Source: a plasmid
Length of the DNA: 64,000 nt
NCBI RefSeq assembly: GCF_055900595.2
Contig: NZ_JBVWEU010000003.1
Strand: one strand, 5' to 3'
Below the pieces are notes generated by a model that saw only the letters and a program-made list of their open reading frames with translations, made no database searches and was not told the origin of the DNA. Every line of letters begins with the position of its first letter. The first letter of the stretch is position 1. The translations under genes were made by a program, and so were the position numbers. Of the stretch, positions 16,363 through 64,000 are shown in pieces.

Positions 16363-17467
16363 TGTGATTATCCTCGGTATCTGTGGCTTTCAGGAACAGG
16401 CTGACGGTAGTGGCGTCTTTCAGGATGCCGGACGGCAGGTGCCAGCCGGTATCGGATAACACCCATGGGGTACCGCCAAAACCGAACTGGCGGAAAGCCT
16501 GGTTATTGACATCGATGGCAGCACGAGCAGCGGTCAGACACTTTTCATCCGGTGCAGCCGGTGCATCGACGGTGGGTGCCATACCACCGTCTGCGGAATA
16601 CAGCTGATGCCATCCGGTCGCCCGTTTTTGTGCGTCCGGTTCACACAGCAGTGGCGCAGTCCGGTTTGTGCTGGCCTCTCCGCCGATTACGGAGACCGGA
16701 TAAATCACCACGCTGAATTCCCGGGCCAGTTGCTTAAGCGCGGGCTCCAGAAGACGGCAGTTGATGCATGCGGGGTCAAGGAAGGCGTAGAGTGTGCGTT
16801 CATGACCAGTGGAGAGATTAATGGTGAACATACCCCGGTCCGCGTTGCGTTTAAGTACTGTGGACAGATTACGGCGGGCCTCAGCGGCCTGAACGTGTTG
16901 TTCTTCCGTCACTGCCGTCGGGGCGGGGGCAGAAGAAGGTTCCTGCTGTGTGGGAGCCGGGCGGGCCGGGATGCTGTTAACATGATGTTCCGTATGTGGG
17001 CGTGGTGTCTCTGTGTCGGTTACTGGTTCAGCTCTCCATTCCTGAGATGTAGGGTAAGCCAGCGTGGAAGGGGGCTCTGCCTTCATCCAGTGGTAACCTG
17101 CAACTGTCGCCGGCAGAGCAATTCCGGCGATAAAGCCACACATCAGTGTCCGCCAGAAGCCATATTTCCGGGAGGGATGTTTTCCTTTTCCGGCATATTC
17201 GGCATCCAGGCAGGCATCAATCGCTGAGAGCATTCTGCCGATGTGATGTCCGGGACGTTCTGCATCAACGGTATCAACAAGCACCGTTTCGGTTATTTCG
17301 CGAAAAGGGGAACTGAAGGACAGGTGCATCAGCCTGTTATTACGGTTAATCAGTGCGCCCAGTTCTGTTACCGGCAGGATGGCAATCACCTCCCGATTAC
17401 CGTCAGGGTACAGGGCGGTCAGGGACAGGTGTTTATTATTCAGTGTTGCAGTGTAGTGGATGGTCAT
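16343..17467 (-). CDS. trbB: TrbB, thioredoxin-fold disulfide isomerase-like transfer protein
   Basis: 374 aa; CxxC motif (DPACINC) in the C-terminal domain; position between trbC and trbA. Confidence 0.8.
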   Translation of the reverse strand: MTIHYTATLNNKHLSLTALYPDGNREVIAILPVTELGALINRNNRLMHLSFSSPFREITETVLVDTVDAERPGHHIGRMLSAIDACLDAEYAGKGKHPSRKYGFWRTLMCGFIAGIALPATVAGYHWMKAEPPSTLAYPTSQEWRAEPVTDTETPRPHTEHHVNSIPARPAPTQQEPSSAPAPTAVTEEQHVQAAEARRNLSTVLKRNADRGMFTINLSTGHERTLYAFLDPACINCRLLEPALKQLAREFSVVIYPVSVIGGEASTNRTAPLLCEPDAQKRATGWHQLYSADGGMAPTVDAPAAPDEKCLTAARAAIDVNNQAFRQFGFGGTPWVLSDTGWHLPSGILKDATTVSLFLKATDTEDNHNEPASR

Positions 17468-18825
17468 TGTTCTTTTTCCTTGTCGGCGGGATCCTGTTTT
17501 TCGGTGGTTTCGGTGGTTTCGGTGGTTTCGGTGGTTTCGGTGGTTTCGGTGGTTTCGGTGGTTTCGGTGGTTTCGGTGGTTTCGGTGGTTTCGGTGGTTT
17601 CGGTGGTTTCACCAGTGTCAGTGTCTTCGTCGTTATCATGGCGGCGGGGTATCACGTCATCCGTGAGTGACCAGCGGGTCCTGATCTGACGTTTACGATC
17701 GCGATCTGGCTGAGGTTCGTCCCATATCAGGCCCAGCCCCAGCATGTCCCGTCGAAGCCCTTCAATGGCCTCTTCCACACAGGGTTCCGGGCAGGGGAGG
17801 CCGAGACGGCTGGCTTCATTTTCTGCCCGGGCAACGGCCACCACGCCGGCCCCTTCGATGAAGCCTTTTGTGGTGTTTGCCCGGTGAAGGGCATAGAAGA
17901 GCGTCCGGTCAACGCCCTTGAGCCACAGCCAGTTCGGAGGCGTCAGGCGCAAATCATGTGCGTAAAGCCAGACCAGACCGCTGCGAACGTAACGGTGCTG
18001 CCTGAGCCACTTTTGTGCGCCTTCTGTTTTGATGACCCGGATAAAGGCGTTTCTGGCCAGTGAATACACCGGCGTGCTGAAACGCCCCTGGTCCCGTTTA
18101 CTTTTGAGCCTGCAGGAGAGATTGAGGTTGTTCATCAGGGCTACCGCTGCTTTCCGGTCACCGAGGAAGAACTGCAGGCCAAAGATGGCAAAGAGCGCTT
18201 TTTCATGTGGGGCCATGTCTTTCCAGCTGGTCAGTGGTTGCCCCAGTTGCGCCATGAAGCACTGGCGTGTGGACGCAACATCGAGCTGCATGTTGCGGAT
18301 AAGGTTGTTCTGCTCCACAAAGGCTTCGGGGGTTAGTGCGACACGGCGCTCGGGACGTTTTTGTCCGTGGAAGAGTCTGTTGTTGTCTCCATCAGCCAGA
18401 ACGGGGGCGATCGCCGGTGACAGAGCTGAAAAAATATGGGGCAGTGTGTGGATATTCAGTGGCCTGCGGGTAAAACGGGGCTGGGCCGGATGGTGAAACC
18501 ACATCCACAGAAAGCCGAATGTCATGGGAAGCAGAATCAACCAGAGGATCCCCACTGTCCGGGACATAACATCCAGCCACTGGCTGAAAGTGATGGTTGC
18601 CGCGTTGTTAGCAGTGATGGCCAGCAGGTTGTAACGGGGGGCGGCAAAGTTGTGAAAGGGCCCCCAGTCAATCATGCCCCACAGTGTGTGCAGGATCAGG
18701 CAGGAGGCGAAGACGATTTCAGGTAAAAAGCGCCAGATGATAATCGCAAAGAGCAGGCATATGGCACCGACGATATACCATATAGCCATTGGATCTTCGG
18801 CGGCAGACGTCTGTTGGTAAGACAC
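17464..18825 (-). CDS. trbA: TrbA (DotM/IcmP-like inner-membrane transfer protein) with a C-terminal (TTE)n tract
   Basis: 453 aa; multiple TM helices at the N-terminus; C-terminal acidic tail containing TETTETTE... repeats. Confidence 0.8.
   Translation of the reverse strand: MSYQQTSAAEDPMAIWYIVGAICLLFAIIIWRFLPEIVFASCLILHTLWGMIDWGPFHNFAAPRYNLLAITANNAATITFSQWLDVMSRTVGILWLILLPMTFGFLWMWFHHPAQPRFTRRPLNIHTLPHIFSALSPAIAPVLADGDNNRLFHGQKRPERRVALTPEAFVEQNNLIRNMQLDVASTRQCFMAQLGQPLTSWKDMAPHEKALFAIFGLQFFLGDRKAAVALMNNLNLSCRLKSKRDQGRFSTPVYSLARNAFIRVIKTEGAQKWLRQHRYVRSGLVWLYAHDLRLTPPNWLWLKGVDRTLFYALHRANTTKGFIEGAGVVAVARAENEASRLGLPCPEPCVEEAIEGLRRDMLGLGLIWDEPQPDRDRKRQIRTRWSLTDDVIPRRHDNDEDTDTGETTETTETTETTETTETTETTETTETTETTETTETTEKQDPADKEKEQ
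17497..17613 (-). repeat. Perfect 9-bp tandem repeat (TTCGGTGGT on +, about 13 copies) encoding the (TTE)n tract of TrbA
   Basis: Directly visible: ggtggtttcggtggtttcggtggtttc... repeated without interruption. Confidence 0.9.
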
Positions 18826-18961
18826 GGGGATTCCTCCATAGATGAATGGATAAATTTCGGGATTAAGTCGGGTGGCATGAATGCGAATCAGCGCCGGTAA
18901 TAACCGGACAGGAATGAGTTCAACAGGACATTTTCACAGAGAAGAGCGTGGGAGACAGGTA

Positions 18962-18992
18962 CAAAAAAACCGACTGGTGAGGTCGGTTTTTT
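18962..18992. terminator. Bidirectional-looking terminator hairpin
   Basis: AAAAAAA-CCGACC-TCACCA-GGTCGG-TTTTTTT between the trbA start and the nuc end. Confidence 0.5.
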
Positions 18993-19482
18993 TGCTATTC
19001 CGGGGCGGAGTTGGTGACTCTGACCGAAAGGGAAATCACTCTACATCTAACACCATCATAGTAGGCTGCGCTTCTCTTTTTTGCAATCAGAAAAATGACT
19101 ATAATCGCTCCGTTAGCTCTGTCTGGTGATGCTTCTGCCCTTTAATAAAATATGCTCAGGTTAAAAATCGAAAACCTTCCTGCACTTCCTGTGCCTGTTC
19201 CCGTGAGTCAAACATGAGCCGGCTTTTACCCGGAACTCCCCAGGAAATATATTCTACATCCACCCACCATTTTCCGTATTCTTCATATGGTCCGGATATC
19301 ACTTTAGTGACAAATGCATCAACCAGGTTCATTTTTACACCTTTCTGTTATTCTGCTTATTACGACCAGCAGACAGCAAATATTAAAAATAACGCGGCGG
19401 TAAAAATGGCAATTTTTTCCCATACTGTATTTTTTCCATTTATTTGCTTTGAAATGTTTTTTTGCTTCATATCAGTAAATGA

Positions 19483-19950
19483 TTATTTTTTATTCTGTTT
19501 CCTCCAGGCCCATGGTGGCACCGGATTTTCATCTGCCCATAATCCCCGTTTAAGGGCACGGGCATCGCGCTGGAGAGCCGGGAGAGTATAGTCCTTGTTG
19601 TAGTCCGGGTATACCCAGGCCGCTCCCTTCCTGATTTGCTCACGATTCGCTTCAGTGCCGTCAGCGGTATAGACTCTGCCGAGAATACGGTTATATCTGT
19701 CGGTCTGTAAGTATTGTACGGTTACAGGCTTTCCGGCCACCAGGTCCTTCAGCTGAGTGGCTGACCAGCGTCCAAAGGGCTGTTTCTTTTCCGGTGCATC
19801 AATATTTGCCAGGCGGACCCTGACAGTTTTTTTATCCTGTAATATTTCCAGTGTATCACCATCAAGAACGCGGATAACGTTTCCCTGAATCTGTGCAGCG
19901 CAGAGGGAACCTGAAAAAATAATAGCGAGAGAGAACATATATTTTATCAT
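19483..19950 (-). CDS. nuc: Secreted thermonuclease (staphylococcal-nuclease-like)
   Basis: About 155 aa with a signal peptide (MIKYMFSLAIIFSGSLCAAQ); SNase fold motifs (VIRVLDGDT..., RLANIDAPE, RYNRILG). Confidence 0.85.
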   Translation of the reverse strand: MIKYMFSLAIIFSGSLCAAQIQGNVIRVLDGDTLEILQDKKTVRVRLANIDAPEKKQPFGRWSATQLKDLVAGKPVTVQYLQTDRYNRILGRVYTADGTEANREQIRKGAAWVYPDYNKDYTLPALQRDARALKRGLWADENPVPPWAWRKQNKK

Positions 19951-20071
19951 TTTATTACATCCTTTTTTATTCATGAAAAACAGGCGGCGTTTATATTACG
20001 GAATAATATCGTTAAGTTGAGTTTATGTTTCCGGTAATGTAATGCTTCACGCAGAGGGTAATGACTCCAAC

Positions 20072-20575
20072 TTACTGATAGTGTTTTATGTTCAGATAAT
20101 GCCCGATGACCTTGTCATGCAGCTCCACCGATTTTGAGAACGACAGTGACTTCCGTCCCAGCCTTGCCAGATGTTGTCTCAGATTCAGGTTATGTCGCTC
20201 AATGCGCTGAGTGTAACGCTTGCTGATAACGTGCAGCTTTCCCTTCAGGCGTGATTCATACAGCGGCCAGCCATCCGTCATCTATACCACGACCTCAAAG
20301 GCCGACAGCAGGCTCAGAAGACGCTCCAGTGTGGCCAGAGTGCGTTCACCGAAGACGTGCGCCACAACCGTCCTCCGTATCCTGTCATACGCGTAAAACA
20401 GCCAGCGCTGACGTGATTTAGCACCGACGTAGCCCCACTGTTCGTCCATTTCAGCGCAGACAATCACATCACTGCCCGGTTGTATGCGCGAGGTTACCGA
20501 CTGCGGCCTGAGTTTTTTAAGTGACGTAAAACCGTGTTGAGGCCAACGTCCATAATGCGTGCACTGGCGCGACAT
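20072..20575 (-). pseudogene. insB: IS1 insB interrupted by an in-frame stop
   Basis: InsB frame reads ...LSAFEVVV[14 protein letters not shown]... where canonical InsB, as recalled, has ...VVIWMTDGW...; an internal W to stop change splits the ORF into 20282-20575 and 20072-20281. Confidence 0.75.
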
Positions 20576-20769
20576 CCGACGCCATTCATGGCCATATCAA
20601 TGATTTTCTGGTGCTTACCGGGCTGAGAGGCGGTGTAAGTGAACTGTAGTTGCCATGTTTTACGGCAATGAGAGCAGAGATAGCGCTGATGTCCGGCAGT
20701 GCTTTTGCCGTTACGCACCACGCCTTCAGTAGCGGAGCAGGAAGGACATCTGATGGAAATGGAAGCCAC
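20494..20769 (-). CDS. insA: IS1 InsA
   Basis: 91 aa; [30 protein letters not shown]... zinc-finger-type InsA. Confidence 0.95.
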
Positions 20770-20830
20770 GCAAGCACCTTAAAATCACCATCATACACTA
20801 AATCAGTAAGTTGGCAGCATTACCTTTCAT

Positions 20831-22996
20831 TTATTGTTTTATTCCGTCTTTATCATCTCCATTAATATTTTTCAGTTTTTCTTCACGAACGCCAGGTGTT
20901 CTGCGCATATTGGTATTACCTCCGGCAATAATATCTTTGACTGAAGAAACCATATTCCCCAGCATATTAACGCCGTCACGTCCGCCCAGAAAATTAATTA
21001 CATGGTCAGGCAGATAAGCCTGAAGTGCAAAAACGGCGGCAACCAGCGTGGTACAGACGCGGGCATAAATCATCAAAAATCCTGCCATGCTGAACACGCC
21101 CGTCACAGAATTTATCTGGACATTCATCAGCGCGGCGGCAAACAGCGCATTCAGGATTGTGCCGCCGGCCACGATGGCGACCGATGCAAAAAAGAACCCG
21201 AATACCATCAGCAGCGGTCTGATCATGCTGTCTATCAGGTAGATGTAACCGTAAGCGGCCCGGCTTCCCCGGTCCTGGCTTGTTCCCAGATGGGTGGCCG
21301 CCCAGAGGGGGCCAGCAGCACATCCAATCAGTACGCTAACTATCCAGTTACCAATGCCGGTCATCCAGAAGATAAACGGAATAAACGGCAGGTAAATGGA
21401 TAACGAAAAGCCGGCACAGAACAGCAAAAACAGCAGGAAGTAGAGCGGTGGAGCGGCTGCTTCCAGAAAAGCCTTTGCGGCGTCAGATAATCCGCTGACG
21501 GCATTGACCAGTCGACCAAAAACGGAGTTGCTGCCGGCCGTGGAAAGTACCCTGACGGTGGTATAACCCGCCCAGATGGTTTCGGTTGTAACCATGGTGT
21601 AATCGCCAATGTTTTTCATTTTTATCAACGGATTTAGTTGATTAGTTGTGGTACCTGTACCGCTCAGATAAGTGGCTGTCCAGTTAGTCATTCTTGTTAG
21701 GTTAAACCCAATCAATTTTAAGATTGCTGATTGAGGGTCTTGAGTTTTAGATGCGTGGTATTCACTGGCAGAGGTGGCGGTTCCCAGTGCAGGAGTATAC
21801 GCTGAGTTCTGCAACTGTGCCTGGTAAGCTCCTCTGACTTCCTTCAGGAACTCCGTATCCCCGGCTTCGCCCAGTGACGAGACGCCACTCACAGTAGGAG
21901 CGCGGTTGGCCAGGTCTTCCAGTCGCTGGTTGGCGGTGGCAAAGGTCTGGTACCAGGCACCCAGGGCAACCCAGCCGTAGGTGGTCAGGTAGGATTTCAA
22001 CTGCTCCCTGCGCTCAGTTTCTGCGTTATCTGCCGGCAACGCCTTCTGCACCGTTTCTTCATACCGGTTGGCTGCCTTCTGAATACGGCTTTCAATATCC
22101 GGCAGGTTGCCGTTACCCGTGTCGCGTCGGGTCCGGTACGCTGACACAAATTCCTGTGCTGCGCTGTCCAGGTCACGGAGCATGGTATCCATGGCGGAGC
22201 GTTGTGCCGTCAGGACTCCCTGATACTCCGTTTCAATGAAGGGATTGAAAAAATGGGCCAGCGCGGACTGGTTGTTGCTGCCATTCCCTTTCACGGTGAG
22301 ACTCACACTCCCGCAGGTGGCACTGCCATTTGAAACGGTGACGGTATACCTGCCGTTCTCTGTCCGTGAGGATTCGCTCATGGGCGGCGTTGATGAACGT
22401 GCGGTACGGTTAAAGTCATCGAGGCCCGTATTCATGGCGTGTTTGCACAGCGCCATCTCCAGAATTCCCCGTGCTGCCGTGCGGGTGGAGACATGTACTG
22501 GCTGTACGGTCATTGAATAGCCTTCAGCGATGTTTTCTGCAGCAGTCTGAACCATGATATTGGCGGAACCGATGCCCATGATGGATGCGCCCCAGAGCAT
22601 GACCAGTTGTGCCAGGCTCCAGCCGGAAGCGGTGGGCACAATCATCATAAAACCGCTCACAATACTGAGCATTCCGACGACGTCCCGTCCGTTGTTAAAG
22701 ACATTGCCCTGGTGGCCGGTGCGGACAGCATGGCGGATTCCAATAAACAGGAACCAGACTATCCCCATAATGGCGATAATTGCGTTAAACACCATGAACA
22801 GGTTGCCGATAATGGTGTTGCTGCTGGCTGTCAGGGGATTTGTGACCACATCACCAAAAATGGTGACCAGTGCCTGGCGCGACAGGTCATCCGGATTGGT
22901 GGCGGCGCTCACAATGTCCTGATAGGTGACGAATGCCTGTGCAGGTACGGCAGCCAGCGCCAGACCCGCACTCAGTGCTCTGGGTATGATTTTCAC
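20831..22996 (-). CDS. traY: TraY (DotA-like integral membrane protein of the I-type T4SS)
   Basis: 721 aa; signal peptide and many TM helices; size and position as R64 TraY. Stop codon lies 6 bp from the IS1 end. Confidence 0.8.
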   Translation of the reverse strand: MKIIPRALSAGLALAAVPAQAFVTYQDIVSAATNPDDLSRQALVTIFGDVVTNPLTASSNTIIGNLFMVFNAIIAIMGIVWFLFIGIRHAVRTGHQGNVFNNGRDVVGMLSIVSGFMMIVPTASGWSLAQLVMLWGASIMGIGSANIMVQTAAENIAEGYSMTVQPVHVSTRTAARGILEMALCKHAMNTGLDDFNRTARSSTPPMSESSRTENGRYTVTVSNGSATCGSVSLTVKGNGSNNQSALAHFFNPFIETEYQGVLTAQRSAMDTMLRDLDSAAQEFVSAYRTRRDTGNGNLPDIESRIQKAANRYEETVQKALPADNAETERREQLKSYLTTYGWVALGAWYQTFATANQRLEDLANRAPTVSGVSSLGEAGDTEFLKEVRGAYQAQLQNSAYTPALGTATSASEYHASKTQDPQSAILKLIGFNLTRMTNWTATYLSGTGTTTNQLNPLIKMKNIGDYTMVTTETIWAGYTTVRVLSTAGSNSVFGRLVNAVSGLSDAAKAFLEAAAPPLYFLLFLLFCAGFSLSIYLPFIPFIFWMTGIGNWIVSVLIGCAAGPLWAATHLGTSQDRGSRAAYGYIYLIDSMIRPLLMVFGFFFASVAIVAGGTILNALFAAALMNVQINSVTGVFSMAGFLMIYARVCTTLVAAVFALQAYLPDHVINFLGGRDGVNMLGNMVSSVKDIIAGGNTNMRRTPGVREEKLKNINGDDKDGIKQ

Positions 22997-23068: not shown

Positions 23069-23638
23069 TCAGTACTGCCGGTGGGTAATGGCCAGCCATG
23101 TGGCCTGTTTCCAGCCGTGCCGGGCCTGCAGGTAATCGGGGAAGGTGCCCTGTTCGTCCTCGCTGACCCGCCGTTCATTCAGTTGCCAGAGGCGGTATGA
23201 CACAATCAGGGTTTTTGAGGCACACAGTGCTGCAATGGCACTCATCAGTAACAGGCAGGCCAGTATACGTATCAGGGTGATGGCCGGCAGCGCTGTGGCA
23301 GCAAGGGCCATGCCGCACAGCAGAAGTACCGGTATCATCATCAGCCAGAATCCTGTCCGCCAGAACATCCTGCGACGTCGCAGACGCCGATCCAGTTCGT
23401 TGACCGTAAGGCCGCTGGCCCTGACGGCTTCTTCCCAGGTCATACAGACCGGAATCTCCGGTTGCCGGTCGGGCATGAGGCGCTTCAGGCGCGTTTTATG
23501 CTGGCCCAGCATATGGCGGCAGCTGCGCAGCATCCACCGGGTTTCGGCCAGTGGTGCGAACAGGTTTATCCCGATGTCACCGATGCGGCGGAGACGGGGG
23601 GCCGGTTTTTTTTTGTCGGTGCTGTTGTCGTCTTTCAT
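23069..23638 (-). CDS. traX: TraX-position membrane protein
   Basis: 189 aa with two central TM helices; order traY-traX-traW as in R64. Confidence 0.55.
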   Translation of the reverse strand: MKDDNSTDKKKPAPRLRRIGDIGINLFAPLAETRWMLRSCRHMLGQHKTRLKRLMPDRQPEIPVCMTWEEAVRASGLTVNELDRRLRRRRMFWRTGFWLMMIPVLLLCGMALAATALPAITLIRILACLLLMSAIAALCASKTLIVSYRLWQLNERRVSEDEQGTFPDYLQARHGWKQATWLAITHRQY

Positions 23639-24840
23639 CTTACGCTCCCCTGGCTCATGGCCTGTGACAGTTCACCGAGACGCTGTCCGTAATACTGTCG
23701 TGCCGCCAGTGCCAGCTGCTGCCCGGCGATAACATTACCCTGGCGTATCTGCTCTTTCAGGTCGTTCATCTGCCAGTTCAGCAGGGCGGTAGTGCGCAGC
23801 AGTTCACGGAGAAGGTTATCGCCTTCCATGCCCTGCAGATCCTGCTGCCAGTCGGTGTTTGCATAGCGTCTGCCGGCTTCAAAGGCCTCAAACTCCCGCT
23901 GGCTCATGTGACCACGGGTGCGGGCCTCTGATGATGCGGTCCGGTCAAAATATGCCGCAGCGGATGGTGACTGCAGGGCTTCAGTCAGTGCTCCACGGGT
24001 GGCCTCATTAGGGGTACTGTCAGCTATCAGTGACAGTTGCGGATGAGAGGCGGCATCGATGATGCCGTTGTATTCATTCTGCAGGCCCACATACGTGCGC
24101 CCGGTCTGTGTTCCCACTTCACCTTTCCCCGGGGCACGACCCGCTGACGGTCTGGCGGTGTTTTTCATGTAAGCCGTGGCAGCATCAATCTGTTTCTGAT
24201 CCCAGGTGAGGGCGGCAGGGGTATCTGCTGTGCCTGCACCCTGATAGAGCGATCGCACCTGGCTGTCTCCGCCCGGCAGCTCGCCCACGGCAGGGCAGAC
24301 ATCGGTTCCGCCAAAGCGGGCATATTCAGCTTCCGTGCAGTAACCGGCATGAATGCCTGCACTGTCATATGCCTCGCGGGTTGGTGAGTCTGCTGCCCGG
24401 GAGAGACGTTCACGGATGGGTTTACTGCTGACGCCTCCTCCCTGACTCAGACGTGCAGCCGCAGACGCTGCTGCACGGCGACTTTCAGCTGCAACTCCGG
24501 AGGCGGATTCACTGCAGATGGAGTCCGGCACGCTGAAGCTCTTCCGGGCTTCCTCAAGCCGGCGGGTTTCATTACTGAATATCATCTGCTGACGGGTGGC
24601 CTGCCCATCCTGTGCGATGACAGAGGCCAGCTTCTCTGAACTCTGGTTGATGGCTGTGCCGGTGGCTGTCTGCATACGGACCATCTCTGCCATCACGCCC
24701 TGAATAGCGGCCAGCTCCGGCATGATTTGTGTGGTGACAGGCTGGCTGGCCACTACGGTCACAGAGTAGGCATGGGTGGCAGGAATAACCGCACAGCCTA
24801 TCAGGAGTGCAAGCAGTGTGGTTGCAGATTGTCTTTGCAT
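23635..24840 (-). CDS. traW: TraW (DotC-like periplasmic lipoprotein)
   Basis: Start chosen at MQRQSATTLLALLIGCAVIPATHA (signal peptide with GC lipobox); about 401 aa. Confidence 0.7.
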   Translation of the reverse strand: MQRQSATTLLALLIGCAVIPATHAYSVTVVASQPVTTQIMPELAAIQGVMAEMVRMQTATGTAINQSSEKLASVIAQDGQATRQQMIFSNETRRLEEARKSFSVPDSICSESASGVAAESRRAAASAAARLSQGGGVSSKPIRERLSRAADSPTREAYDSAGIHAGYCTEAEYARFGGTDVCPAVGELPGGDSQVRSLYQGAGTADTPAALTWDQKQIDAATAYMKNTARPSAGRAPGKGEVGTQTGRTYVGLQNEYNGIIDAASHPQLSLIADSTPNEATRGALTEALQSPSAAAYFDRTASSEARTRGHMSQREFEAFEAGRRYANTDWQQDLQGMEGDNLLRELLRTTALLNWQMNDLKEQIRQGNVIAGQQLALAARQYYGQRLGELSQAMSQGSVR

Positions 24841-25418
24841 TCTTTTTTCTCCGTTTTCGGGGGATACAGGATGTCTGGTACGCGATGACTGAGTGATTCC
24901 GGCAGCGGAGCCAGCGGGAAACACTGGAAGCGGCGCGTGATCCATCCCTGACGGTTACGGTTATCGATGAGCGTGAAGGTACGACGCTTCACGCGTTTCA
25001 GTGTCGGGGTGTCGCTTTCCATGACCGGCCAGTCTCCGGCTGTGAGTGCCGGTGTGCCGGGGACATCCGGCCACAGCCAGGTGTTGTCAGACATCAGCGC
25101 AGTGAGTGGTGCGGGCAGAAGCCAGTGAATGACATGCTGTATATCAAAAGGCGGTCGCTCCGGCACGTTAACCTGCCAGGTGGCCGTTGTAATCAGCGTG
25201 CCTGTCTCTCCGGGCAGGGCCAGGCGAATACCACTCATCTCCCCGTCAGCCCGTCTGTCACTGGCAAAAATGACCCGGGGATTGGGGGACGGTCGCAGTG
25301 TGAAGCAGGCGGACGGCAGGGTGAAGCTGAAACTGTCACCGTCCACGCGCAGCGTTTTCAGGAAGACCTGTCCCCGTGCAGGACGCCGGCAGCGGGGAGT
25401 GATGTGTATGCTGTACAT
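24801..25418 (-). CDS. traV: TraV-position protein
   Basis: 205 aa ORF between traW and traU; start coupled to the traU stop; assigned by position only. Confidence 0.5.
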   Translation of the reverse strand: MYSIHITPRCRRPARGQVFLKTLRVDGDSFSFTLPSACFTLRPSPNPRVIFASDRRADGEMSGIRLALPGETGTLITTATWQVNVPERPPFDIQHVIHWLLPAPLTALMSDNTWLWPDVPGTPALTAGDWPVMESDTPTLKRVKRRTFTLIDNRNRQGWITRRFQCFPLAPLPESLSHRVPDILYPPKTEKKECKDNLQPHCLHS

Positions 25419-63290: not shown

Positions 63291-64000
63291 GATTTACGCA
63301 CTCTTGTAAGCCTTGTGGACGGTTTCGAGGCGGGCGAAAACCGACAACTCCTGCAAACAGGATTAATGGCTGGAAAATATATTACATAAGGATGTATCTG
63401 TGGCAAGAGTTAATATAAGTAGTTGAATAGATCGTTATATTTGATAAATCAGCATATCATGCTGATTTGTGTGCAGTGTCTGGAGGATTAGATCGTTTAA
63501 AAATTTTAGGCGATCTCTTCTACTAAAAATGATGAAAAATACAGCATAAAAGATCGTTTGTGAAATTGTTCATTTTTTGACACAGTTCAAAAAAACGACG
63601 CTTTTTCGGGGAGTTAAAGAGGGCCACTGTAACCCTGAGAAATCATGTCGGCTTTTCAAAGCGGTGGAAAAGGGGTATATTGCGGATCGTTATGCAGTGG
63701 CTTTTGGGATCGTCAGGATCCGGGAAGTCAGAAAACGGCAGGATGCGCCATAAGGCATTCAGGACGTATGGCAGAAACGACGGCAGTTTGCCGGTGCCGG
63801 AAGGCTGAAAAAAGTTTCAGAAGGCCATAAAGGAAAACCCCCACTATCTTTCGTCGAACTTTGGCGGGATCGTGAAAGATAGTGGGGGCCTCACAGAATA
63901 CGGGATAAGTATATATGAAACCGTGTCAGAGATTCAACCCTTTGCAGTGCATTAACGCACGGCAATTTGTTCCCGCCATAAGCGACAGCTTGTGGCGGCC

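Follow-up and report, generated by a model that had tools for sequence, protein, structure and literature searches.

A gap between the genes nuc and trbA raises the question of what it encodes. We addressed this question in a 64,000-nt (64-kb) stretch of plasmid DNA, hereafter the window, in which the gap spans 18826-19482 (657 bp, close to the ~650 bp given in the first-pass annotation). That annotation had noticed one possible small ORF and described the gap as otherwise unexplained, a description that does not hold: besides the ORF, the gap contains an AgrB-family sRNA gene, the promoter stub of a dqlB toxin gene together with a deletion scar, and a conserved 36-aa ORF (Table 1). We consider it likely, with a probability of roughly 0.8, that the small ORF, which encodes 58 aa, is a genuine accessory gene of I-complex (IncI1/B/O/K/Z) plasmids whose product is OB-like and probably a binder, and that the rest of the gap is a decayed DqlB-AgrB locus. 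In short, the locus is an ordinary known gene beside a modestly interesting decayed toxin-antitoxin locus.

The window carries the pseudoknot that regulates repZ in I-complex plasmids, and its closest plasmid matches are typed as IncK2/Z and MPF_I; it therefore lies on an I-complex conjugative plasmid. At the downstream border of the gap, the C-terminus of TrbA (17464-17640, minus strand) includes a long run of (TET/ETT)n, which corresponds to a short tandem repeat in the DNA. TrbA has 453 aa here versus 420-444 aa in relatives (CDS of 1263-1335 nt including the stop), so the repeat may be expanded.

Table 1. Features of the nuc-trbA gap and of its surroundings in the window
Feature	Position	Strand	Basis and remarks
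trbA (DotM-like)	17464..18825	minus	Pfam DotM_C E=2.6e-47; annotation in relatives; downstream neighbour
AgrB-family antisense sRNA gene (type I antitoxin of DinQ-like toxins)	18961..19050	minus	Rfam RF02891
Rho-independent terminator hairpin of the sRNA	18962..18994	minus	13-bp perfect inverted repeat, 7-nt loop, then U-run
Putative sigma-70 promoter of the sRNA	19058..19086	minus	TTGCAA (19086-19081), 17-nt spacer, TACTAT (19063-19058); by analogy
dqlB remnant	19100..19139	plus	-10 TATAAT (19100-19105) and ~28 nt of mRNA start (GTTAGCTCTG..., 19112-19139)
Deletion junction	19132..19139		Single copy of the 8-nt repeat GGCAGAAG (minus-strand reading)
58-aa ORF	19156..19332	minus	ATG start, 58 aa and stop (ORF listing)
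Shine-Dalgarno-like AAGGTG	19338..19343	minus	5 nt upstream of the ATG of the 58-aa ORF; read from the sequence
36-aa ORF (MKQKNISKQINGKNTVWEKIAIFTAALFLIFAVCWS)	19360..19470	minus	One C-terminal hydrophobic stretch, probably membrane-spanning
nuc (thermonuclease / SNase family)	19483..19974	minus	Pfam SNase E=9.7e-23; annotation in relatives; upstream neighbour
IS1	~20056-20823		InsA/InsB frames, terminal repeats; flanked by traY (stop at 20831) and nuc (start at 19974)
PK-repZ pseudoknot (I-complex repZ regulatory element)	63830-63979	plus	Rfam, 167 bits

The small ORF is present with an ATG start and translates letter for letter into the peptide reported at first pass, but the length given there, 57 aa, was one residue short and the coordinates were off by 1 nt. 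The coding span without the stop is 19159-19332, and the 174-nt span of the earlier report itself amounts to 58 codons. The ORF had also been called unannotated, whereas PGAP annotates an identical protein (100%) as hypothetical protein WP_001054907.1 in related plasmids, pEGY2 and NZ_JCANNG010000003.1 among them. The IncI1 alleles, which share 83-86% identity with the window protein, are annotated as WP_001054897.1 and WP_001054898.1. The ORF is therefore already known, as a catalogued hypothetical protein. A full-text literature search for the WP_ accessions and for phrog_8110 found no paper, and a proteomic study of an IncI1 plasmid contributed no usable evidence of the protein.

Conservation, the check proposed for this ORF at first pass, supports it in related plasmids and in phages alike. 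Searching with tblastn recovered the 58-aa protein in 1,816 plasmid records, nearly full length in 1,743 of them; 277 matched at 99% identity or more and ~1,400, the IncI1 allele included, fell in the 80-90% band. The gene is present in about 1,800 I-complex plasmids. Against two IncI1 copies, dN/dS was 0.055 (dN 0.08-0.10, dS 1.5-1.75), and the nucleotide differences were concentrated at third codon positions (25 of 37 for copy L007 and 23 of 34 for copy L008). A HMMER scan, exhaustive over 1.84 billion cluster representatives, returned 181 proteins at E<=1e-3, and most of those among the matches listed were 57-62 aa long. Because of the low dN/dS, the third-position bias, the 1,816 plasmid records and the 181 cluster representatives, we regard the ORF as a real coding gene, one that by its substitution pattern is under strong purifying selection, far beyond chance.

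The 94-member alignment of the family gave the consensus MNLxDAxVTxVLxxPYxxYGKWWVxVxYxxxGxxxxTxLMFxTxEEAxxVxxGYxFLx. The window protein matched phrog_8110 (E=2.2e-18) with residues 1-57 over a 59-position profile, a full-length HMM match that assigns it by sequence to the PHROG 8110 / WP_001054907 family. Full-length homologues with 38-53% identity were found in the Pseudomonas phages HU1 and AH02, in Aeromonas Plateaulakevirus phages, in a crAss-like gut phage and in a Bacteroides phage. The phage homologues stand in runs of small early or accessory genes, beside a Gam-like protein, a DNA methyltransferase or an endolysin. Two candidate divergent homologues, P0068 and P0076, were rejected, both being frameshifted copies, and apparent domain fusions were likewise dismissed as N-terminal gene-call extensions or merges that carry no informative Pfam domain.

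In the pEC013 lineage (NZ_MG545909.1, locus 1650-1830), the 58-aa ORF is a pseudogene, with TGG to TAG at W22 and a 1-nt deletion, and no feature is annotated there; the same holds for the annotation of many records that match the gap at 94.3% identity. The gene is therefore dispensable and non-essential to the plasmid. Taken alone it matters little, as one more conserved hypothetical small protein in RefSeq. As a family it is more notable: it is length-invariant, occurs in enterobacterial plasmids and in phages of several phyla, and has a confidently predicted fold, which makes it a candidate for small-protein and anti-defence screens.

Upstream of the 58-aa ORF, the 36-aa ORF begins 12 nt downstream of the nuc stop codon, and 27 nt separate its end from the 58-aa ORF. 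Intact copies are present in 142 plasmid records of PLSDB, and none of them is annotated. The IncI1 version has 42 aa and keeps the C-terminal 24 codons, in which the differences at codon positions 1/2/3 number 7/5/13. The 36-aa ORF has no obvious Shine-Dalgarno sequence and may be translationally coupled to nuc. The 36-aa and 58-aa ORFs probably form a conserved two-gene cassette, and nuc is probably co-transcribed with both. The 58-aa protein is probably translated from its own Shine-Dalgarno sequence, probably on a transcript shared with nuc and the 36-aa ORF. In the Pseudomonas phage AH02 (locus 2373-2504), gp19 is a 43-aa hydrophobic, probably membrane-spanning peptide encoded directly upstream of the 58-aa homologue with a 4-nt overlap, and this gene pair resembles the pairing in the plasmid. 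A consistent link between a small transmembrane peptide and the 58-aa family in phages was dropped, because AH02 is the only one of four phage loci to show it.

The sRNA sequence in the gap matched RF02891 along the full length of the model (positions 1-84) with 50.4 bits, above the gathering cutoff of 40, and with an E-value of 1.6e-5 calculated for the whole window; it is one of two gathering-level Rfam matches in the 64 kb. AgrB is the antisense antitoxin of the DinQ toxin. The candidate promoter has the same layout as that of E. coli agrB (TTGCAA-17-TAGTAT-7-TTAGAT): 7 nt separate TACTAT from the first base of the Rfam match, where transcription would start by analogy. The fold z-score of the sRNA is -4.4. 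Its hairpin, with the loop CCACCAACUC, and its terminator recur in agrA and agrB of E. coli and in the copies on IncX3 and IncI1 plasmids, the structure being preserved in five homologues, and the 5' tail varies among them, as expected of a target-recognition region. By these features we assign the element to the AgrB family as an sRNA gene with a promoter and terminator of its own.

AgrB-like sequences akin to the window copy are widespread, with 2,370 plasmid places in 1,618 of 5,426 complete E. coli genomes, up to five per genome. The plasmid sRNAs are almost never annotated among the matches listed; PGAP names the toxin dqlB, and the plasmid sRNA was annotated in none of the annotated regions examined. 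The locus also shows that an apparently empty gap can conceal an sRNA gene and a tiny ORF, both overlooked by ORF tracks and by most annotations.

The plasmid DqlB-AgrB family was defined in PMC5066626, and DqlB-AgrB is an experimentally validated addiction module on pOXA-48 (PMC12365149) and on IncX3 plasmids (PMC12317039). Toxicity of the peptide and rescue by the sRNA have been demonstrated for the pOXA-48 and IncX3 systems only (PMC12365149, PMC12317039), and the reported share of plasmids with dqlB is 83% for IncB/O/K/Z and 67% for IncI1 (PMC12365149, PMC12317039, PMC5066626). Among the relatives of the window, NZ_JCANNG010000003.1 carries the order trbA, agrB-like sRNA, dqlB (plus strand, 32 aa), 58-aa ORF and nuc, and the IncI1 plasmid pSL476_91 the order excA, HEAT-repeat gene, 58-aa ORF, dqlB, (sRNA), hypothetical gene, Hok/Gef and trbA.

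A base-by-base pairwise alignment showed that the window is collinear with NZ_JCANNG010000003.1 but for one clean 319-nt gap, and the window sRNA is 100% identical to the one beside the intact dqlB of that relative. In the relative, two copies of GGCAGAAG lie 319 nt apart and enclose the toxin ORF, its terminator hairpin and, in its 5'UTR, the target site to which the sRNA is complementary. The segment missing from the window contains all three and matches annotated dqlB in 2,224 plasmids. What remains of the toxin gene is its promoter and the start of its mRNA, whose position is assigned by analogy; the GTTAGCTCTG motif at this putative 5' end is common to the E. coli dinQ and IncX3 dqlB loci. 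A deletion is more parsimonious than an insertion, because the full arrangement is common to IncI1 and IncB/O/K/Z plasmids and because a promoter stub and a microhomology scar remain. We conclude from the alignment that the toxin was lost through a microhomology deletion between the GGCAGAAG repeats.

The short architecture is not confined to the window. It is also found in pEGY2, pPK8275-82kb and pEC013, the last with the same dqlB deletion and an adjacent sRNA region 100% identical to that of the window. In PLSDB, 117 or more records contain at least 80% of the gap as a single locus, and so do 85 or more complete E. coli replicons; the top matches listed are single pieces of 663-665 nt, and the best match over the gap in PLSDB and the complete E. 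coli genomes has 95.3% identity. The deletion has joined the dqlB stub to the 58-aa ORF in antisense orientation. No terminator separates the stub from the antisense strand of the 58-aa and 36-aa ORFs, into which it points, and antisense transcription might follow.

A search by tblastn for DinQ/DqlB peptides (27-32 aa, single-TM, divergent) found none in the 64 kb, and a toxin hidden on the plus strand antisense to the 58-aa ORF, or elsewhere in the window, was likewise considered and found not to be present. The window sRNA is predicted to form a duplex of -50 kcal/mol with the dqlB 5'UTR of the intact relative, against a background of -19.3 +/- 4.7 kcal/mol for 60-nt windows and -34 to -40 kcal/mol for non-cognate leaders. 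No cognate target was found in the 64-kb window, from which the complementary stretch of the 5'UTR (~30-35 nt) is absent. The best non-self duplex (24376-24435, plus strand, -43 kcal/mol) was judged to be a chance match, because it falls on the non-coding strand within a tra-region ORF of high GC content (23635-24945), and no small ORF lies close by. A weak direct repeat (19242-19260 versus the 5' end of the sRNA, 74%) was rejected as a remnant of the target site, because the true target site of the intact relative lies within the deleted segment. With toxin, target site and terminator deleted, the AgrB sRNA is an orphan antitoxin; since both the toxin and the pairing site are gone, the locus would no longer be able to kill plasmid-free segregants, and would no longer act as an addiction module. 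It illustrates how such a module may decay, the toxin being lost by microhomology deletion and the antitoxin sRNA kept.

As to the fate of the orphan sRNA, we lean towards a neutral leftover of the deletion, a relic that is transcriptionally silent or irrelevant. Its cognate target is absent from the 64 kb, and its sequence is identical in the intact and the deleted lineages, which points to a recent deletion and leaves selection unreadable from sequence. Against a neutral relic, however, stand its intact signals (promoter, recognition tail, hairpin and terminator) and the persistence of the deleted architecture in the PLSDB records and E. coli replicons counted above, which come from many sources; in addition, the sRNA could neutralise the dqlB mRNAs of co-resident plasmids of the same subtype. 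The orphan sRNA would in that case be an "anti-addiction" gene that renders its host immune to post-segregational killing by I-complex plasmids with a DqlB of the same subtype. We consider this unlikely; if true, it would let an IncK/Z-type lineage displace DqlB plasmids without killing the cell.

The first-pass impression of a soluble small protein agrees with the conservation of the 58-aa family and with a confident structural model. Using the 94-sequence alignment as input, AlphaFold2 produced a model with a pLDDT of 91.2, in which three strands (residues 5-18, 21-30 and 33-41) are followed by a helix (44-49) and one more strand (55-57). The protein is thus predicted to be a small acidic, OB-like mini beta-barrel with three long strands, a short helix and a final strand. 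An OB fold proper is a five-stranded closed barrel with a helix between strands 3 and 4; DSSP assigns four strands to the model. Sequence searches of Pfam, NCBIfam, PADLOC and PDB with the protein gave no match, and a Pfam Bact_hydrolase match (E=0.044, 14 bits versus a cutoff of 27) was set aside as noise; the activity proposed here therefore draws on the fold, the charge and the context of the protein.

Most members of the family are acidic, with a median pI of 5.0 and a median charge of -2.5 (68% below pI 6 and 8.5% above pI 8), and the family occurs among early or accessory phage genes. For these two reasons we favour binding to a protein, in a host-modulating or anti-defence capacity, rather than classical binding of ssDNA or RNA. 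The protein would probably act as a single-domain binder of a macromolecular partner and would serve an accessory function common to plasmids and phages. As a speculation that goes beyond the evidence, the 36-aa and 58-aa cassette might be a two-gene accessory or anti-defence unit.

A rather less probable alternative is that the 58-aa protein is a classical nucleic-acid-binding mini OB-fold, similar to Csp, IF1 or SSB, that binds ssDNA or RNA in transfer or in early phage infection. The strands of the family carry conserved aromatics as in cold-shock proteins, which would suit nucleic-acid binding, but the acidity just described speaks for the protein-binding role.

Another reading makes the 58-aa protein a functional third component of DqlB-AgrB, either an RNA-binding OB chaperone or a protein-level modulator of the toxin. 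Its attraction lies in gene order and fold: the block of small TM ORF, 58-aa ORF, dqlB and agrB is syntenic in IncI1 and IncB/O/K/Z plasmids despite differing flanks (nuc versus the HEAT-repeat gene upstream; pnd and a hypothetical gene versus trbA downstream), the 58-aa ORF and dqlB are transcribed towards each other and are separated by the terminator hairpin of dqlB, and the predicted fold resembles RNA-binding OB proteins such as IF1 and eS28. However, the phage homologues have no dqlB or agrB nearby, the dqlB-agrB of IncX3 and pOXA-48 have no 58-aa ORF and work as two-part systems when cloned, and the 58-aa ORF is still intact in the window and in pEGY2 after the toxin deletion. The acidity of the family weighs against this reading as well, and we hold it to be very unlikely. 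Also very unlikely is a reading in which the 58-aa ORF is decaying and currently without function in this plasmid, a relic retained by linkage alone and conserved through recent common descent: the pseudogene of the pEC013-type lineage with its shared dqlB deletion, the frameshifted database variants and the dqlB stub that points antisense into the ORF would fit such a relic, but a dN/dS of 0.055 at saturated dS against IncI1, a length-invariant family that reaches distant phages and an intact window copy identical to a widespread allele do not.

The first-pass annotation had also thought that a Hok/Pnd-type toxin might be present between trbA and excA and had seen none. The expectation was sound in so far as a type I toxin belongs at this site, but its family is that of the DinQ-like DqlB, which is deleted in the window. 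The absence of Hok/Pnd from the gap stood up to Pfam, Rfam and tblastn, and the search for Hok/Gef peptides and sok-like RNAs over the gap found none. Specifically, Pfam matched no Hok/Gef peptide (~50 aa, N-terminal TM, conserved Cys) among the gap ORFs of 20 aa or more, tblastn with three PndA/Hok peptides taken from relatives gave no significant match in the whole 64-kb window, and Rfam scans at the gathering score or at E<=10 detected no Sok/PndB-type RNA.

On the far side of nuc, IS1 directly follows traY in the window, at a position where relatives have excA together with one or two Hok/Gef (pnd-like) genes; neither ExcA nor Hok was found by tblastn in the 64 kb. The comparison suggests that entry exclusion and these type I toxins have been lost from the plasmid, probably via an IS1-associated deletion. 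With dqlB and the excA/hok region both lost, the window is left without any of the three type I toxin genes of the corresponding region in relatives.

Compared with known systems, the window protein shows no sequence difference from WP_001054907.1; the genomic context alone differs, in that the adjacent dqlB is deleted. Relative to the minimal OB-fold proteins (eS28, IF1/eIF1A, the PAN N-domain, SSB/PriB), the 58-aa protein is shorter, acidic, without detectable sequence similarity and has four DSSP strands. The Hok/Sok (PndA/PndB) system of IncI1 belongs to the same class, type I toxin-antitoxin, and occupies the same excA-trbA region in IncI1 and IncK relatives; in contrast, the window has no Hok/Gef peptide or sok-like RNA in the gap or in the entire 64 kb. 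With the chromosomal DinQ-AgrB of E. coli and with DqlB-AgrB, the window shares the RF02891 match, the promoter layout, the CCACCAACUC loop, the terminator and a divergent toxin promoter with GTTAGCTCTG, and it differs in having lost the toxin ORF, the 5'UTR target and the toxin terminator (319 bp). The dinQ promoter has a LexA box, whereas the toxin promoter of the window has none. Sister plasmids carry the full DqlB-AgrB system at exactly this site. We read what is left of the gap as the decayed remains of this type I toxin-antitoxin locus, and its orphan-antitoxin state as a minor variant of a system already known and experimentally validated.
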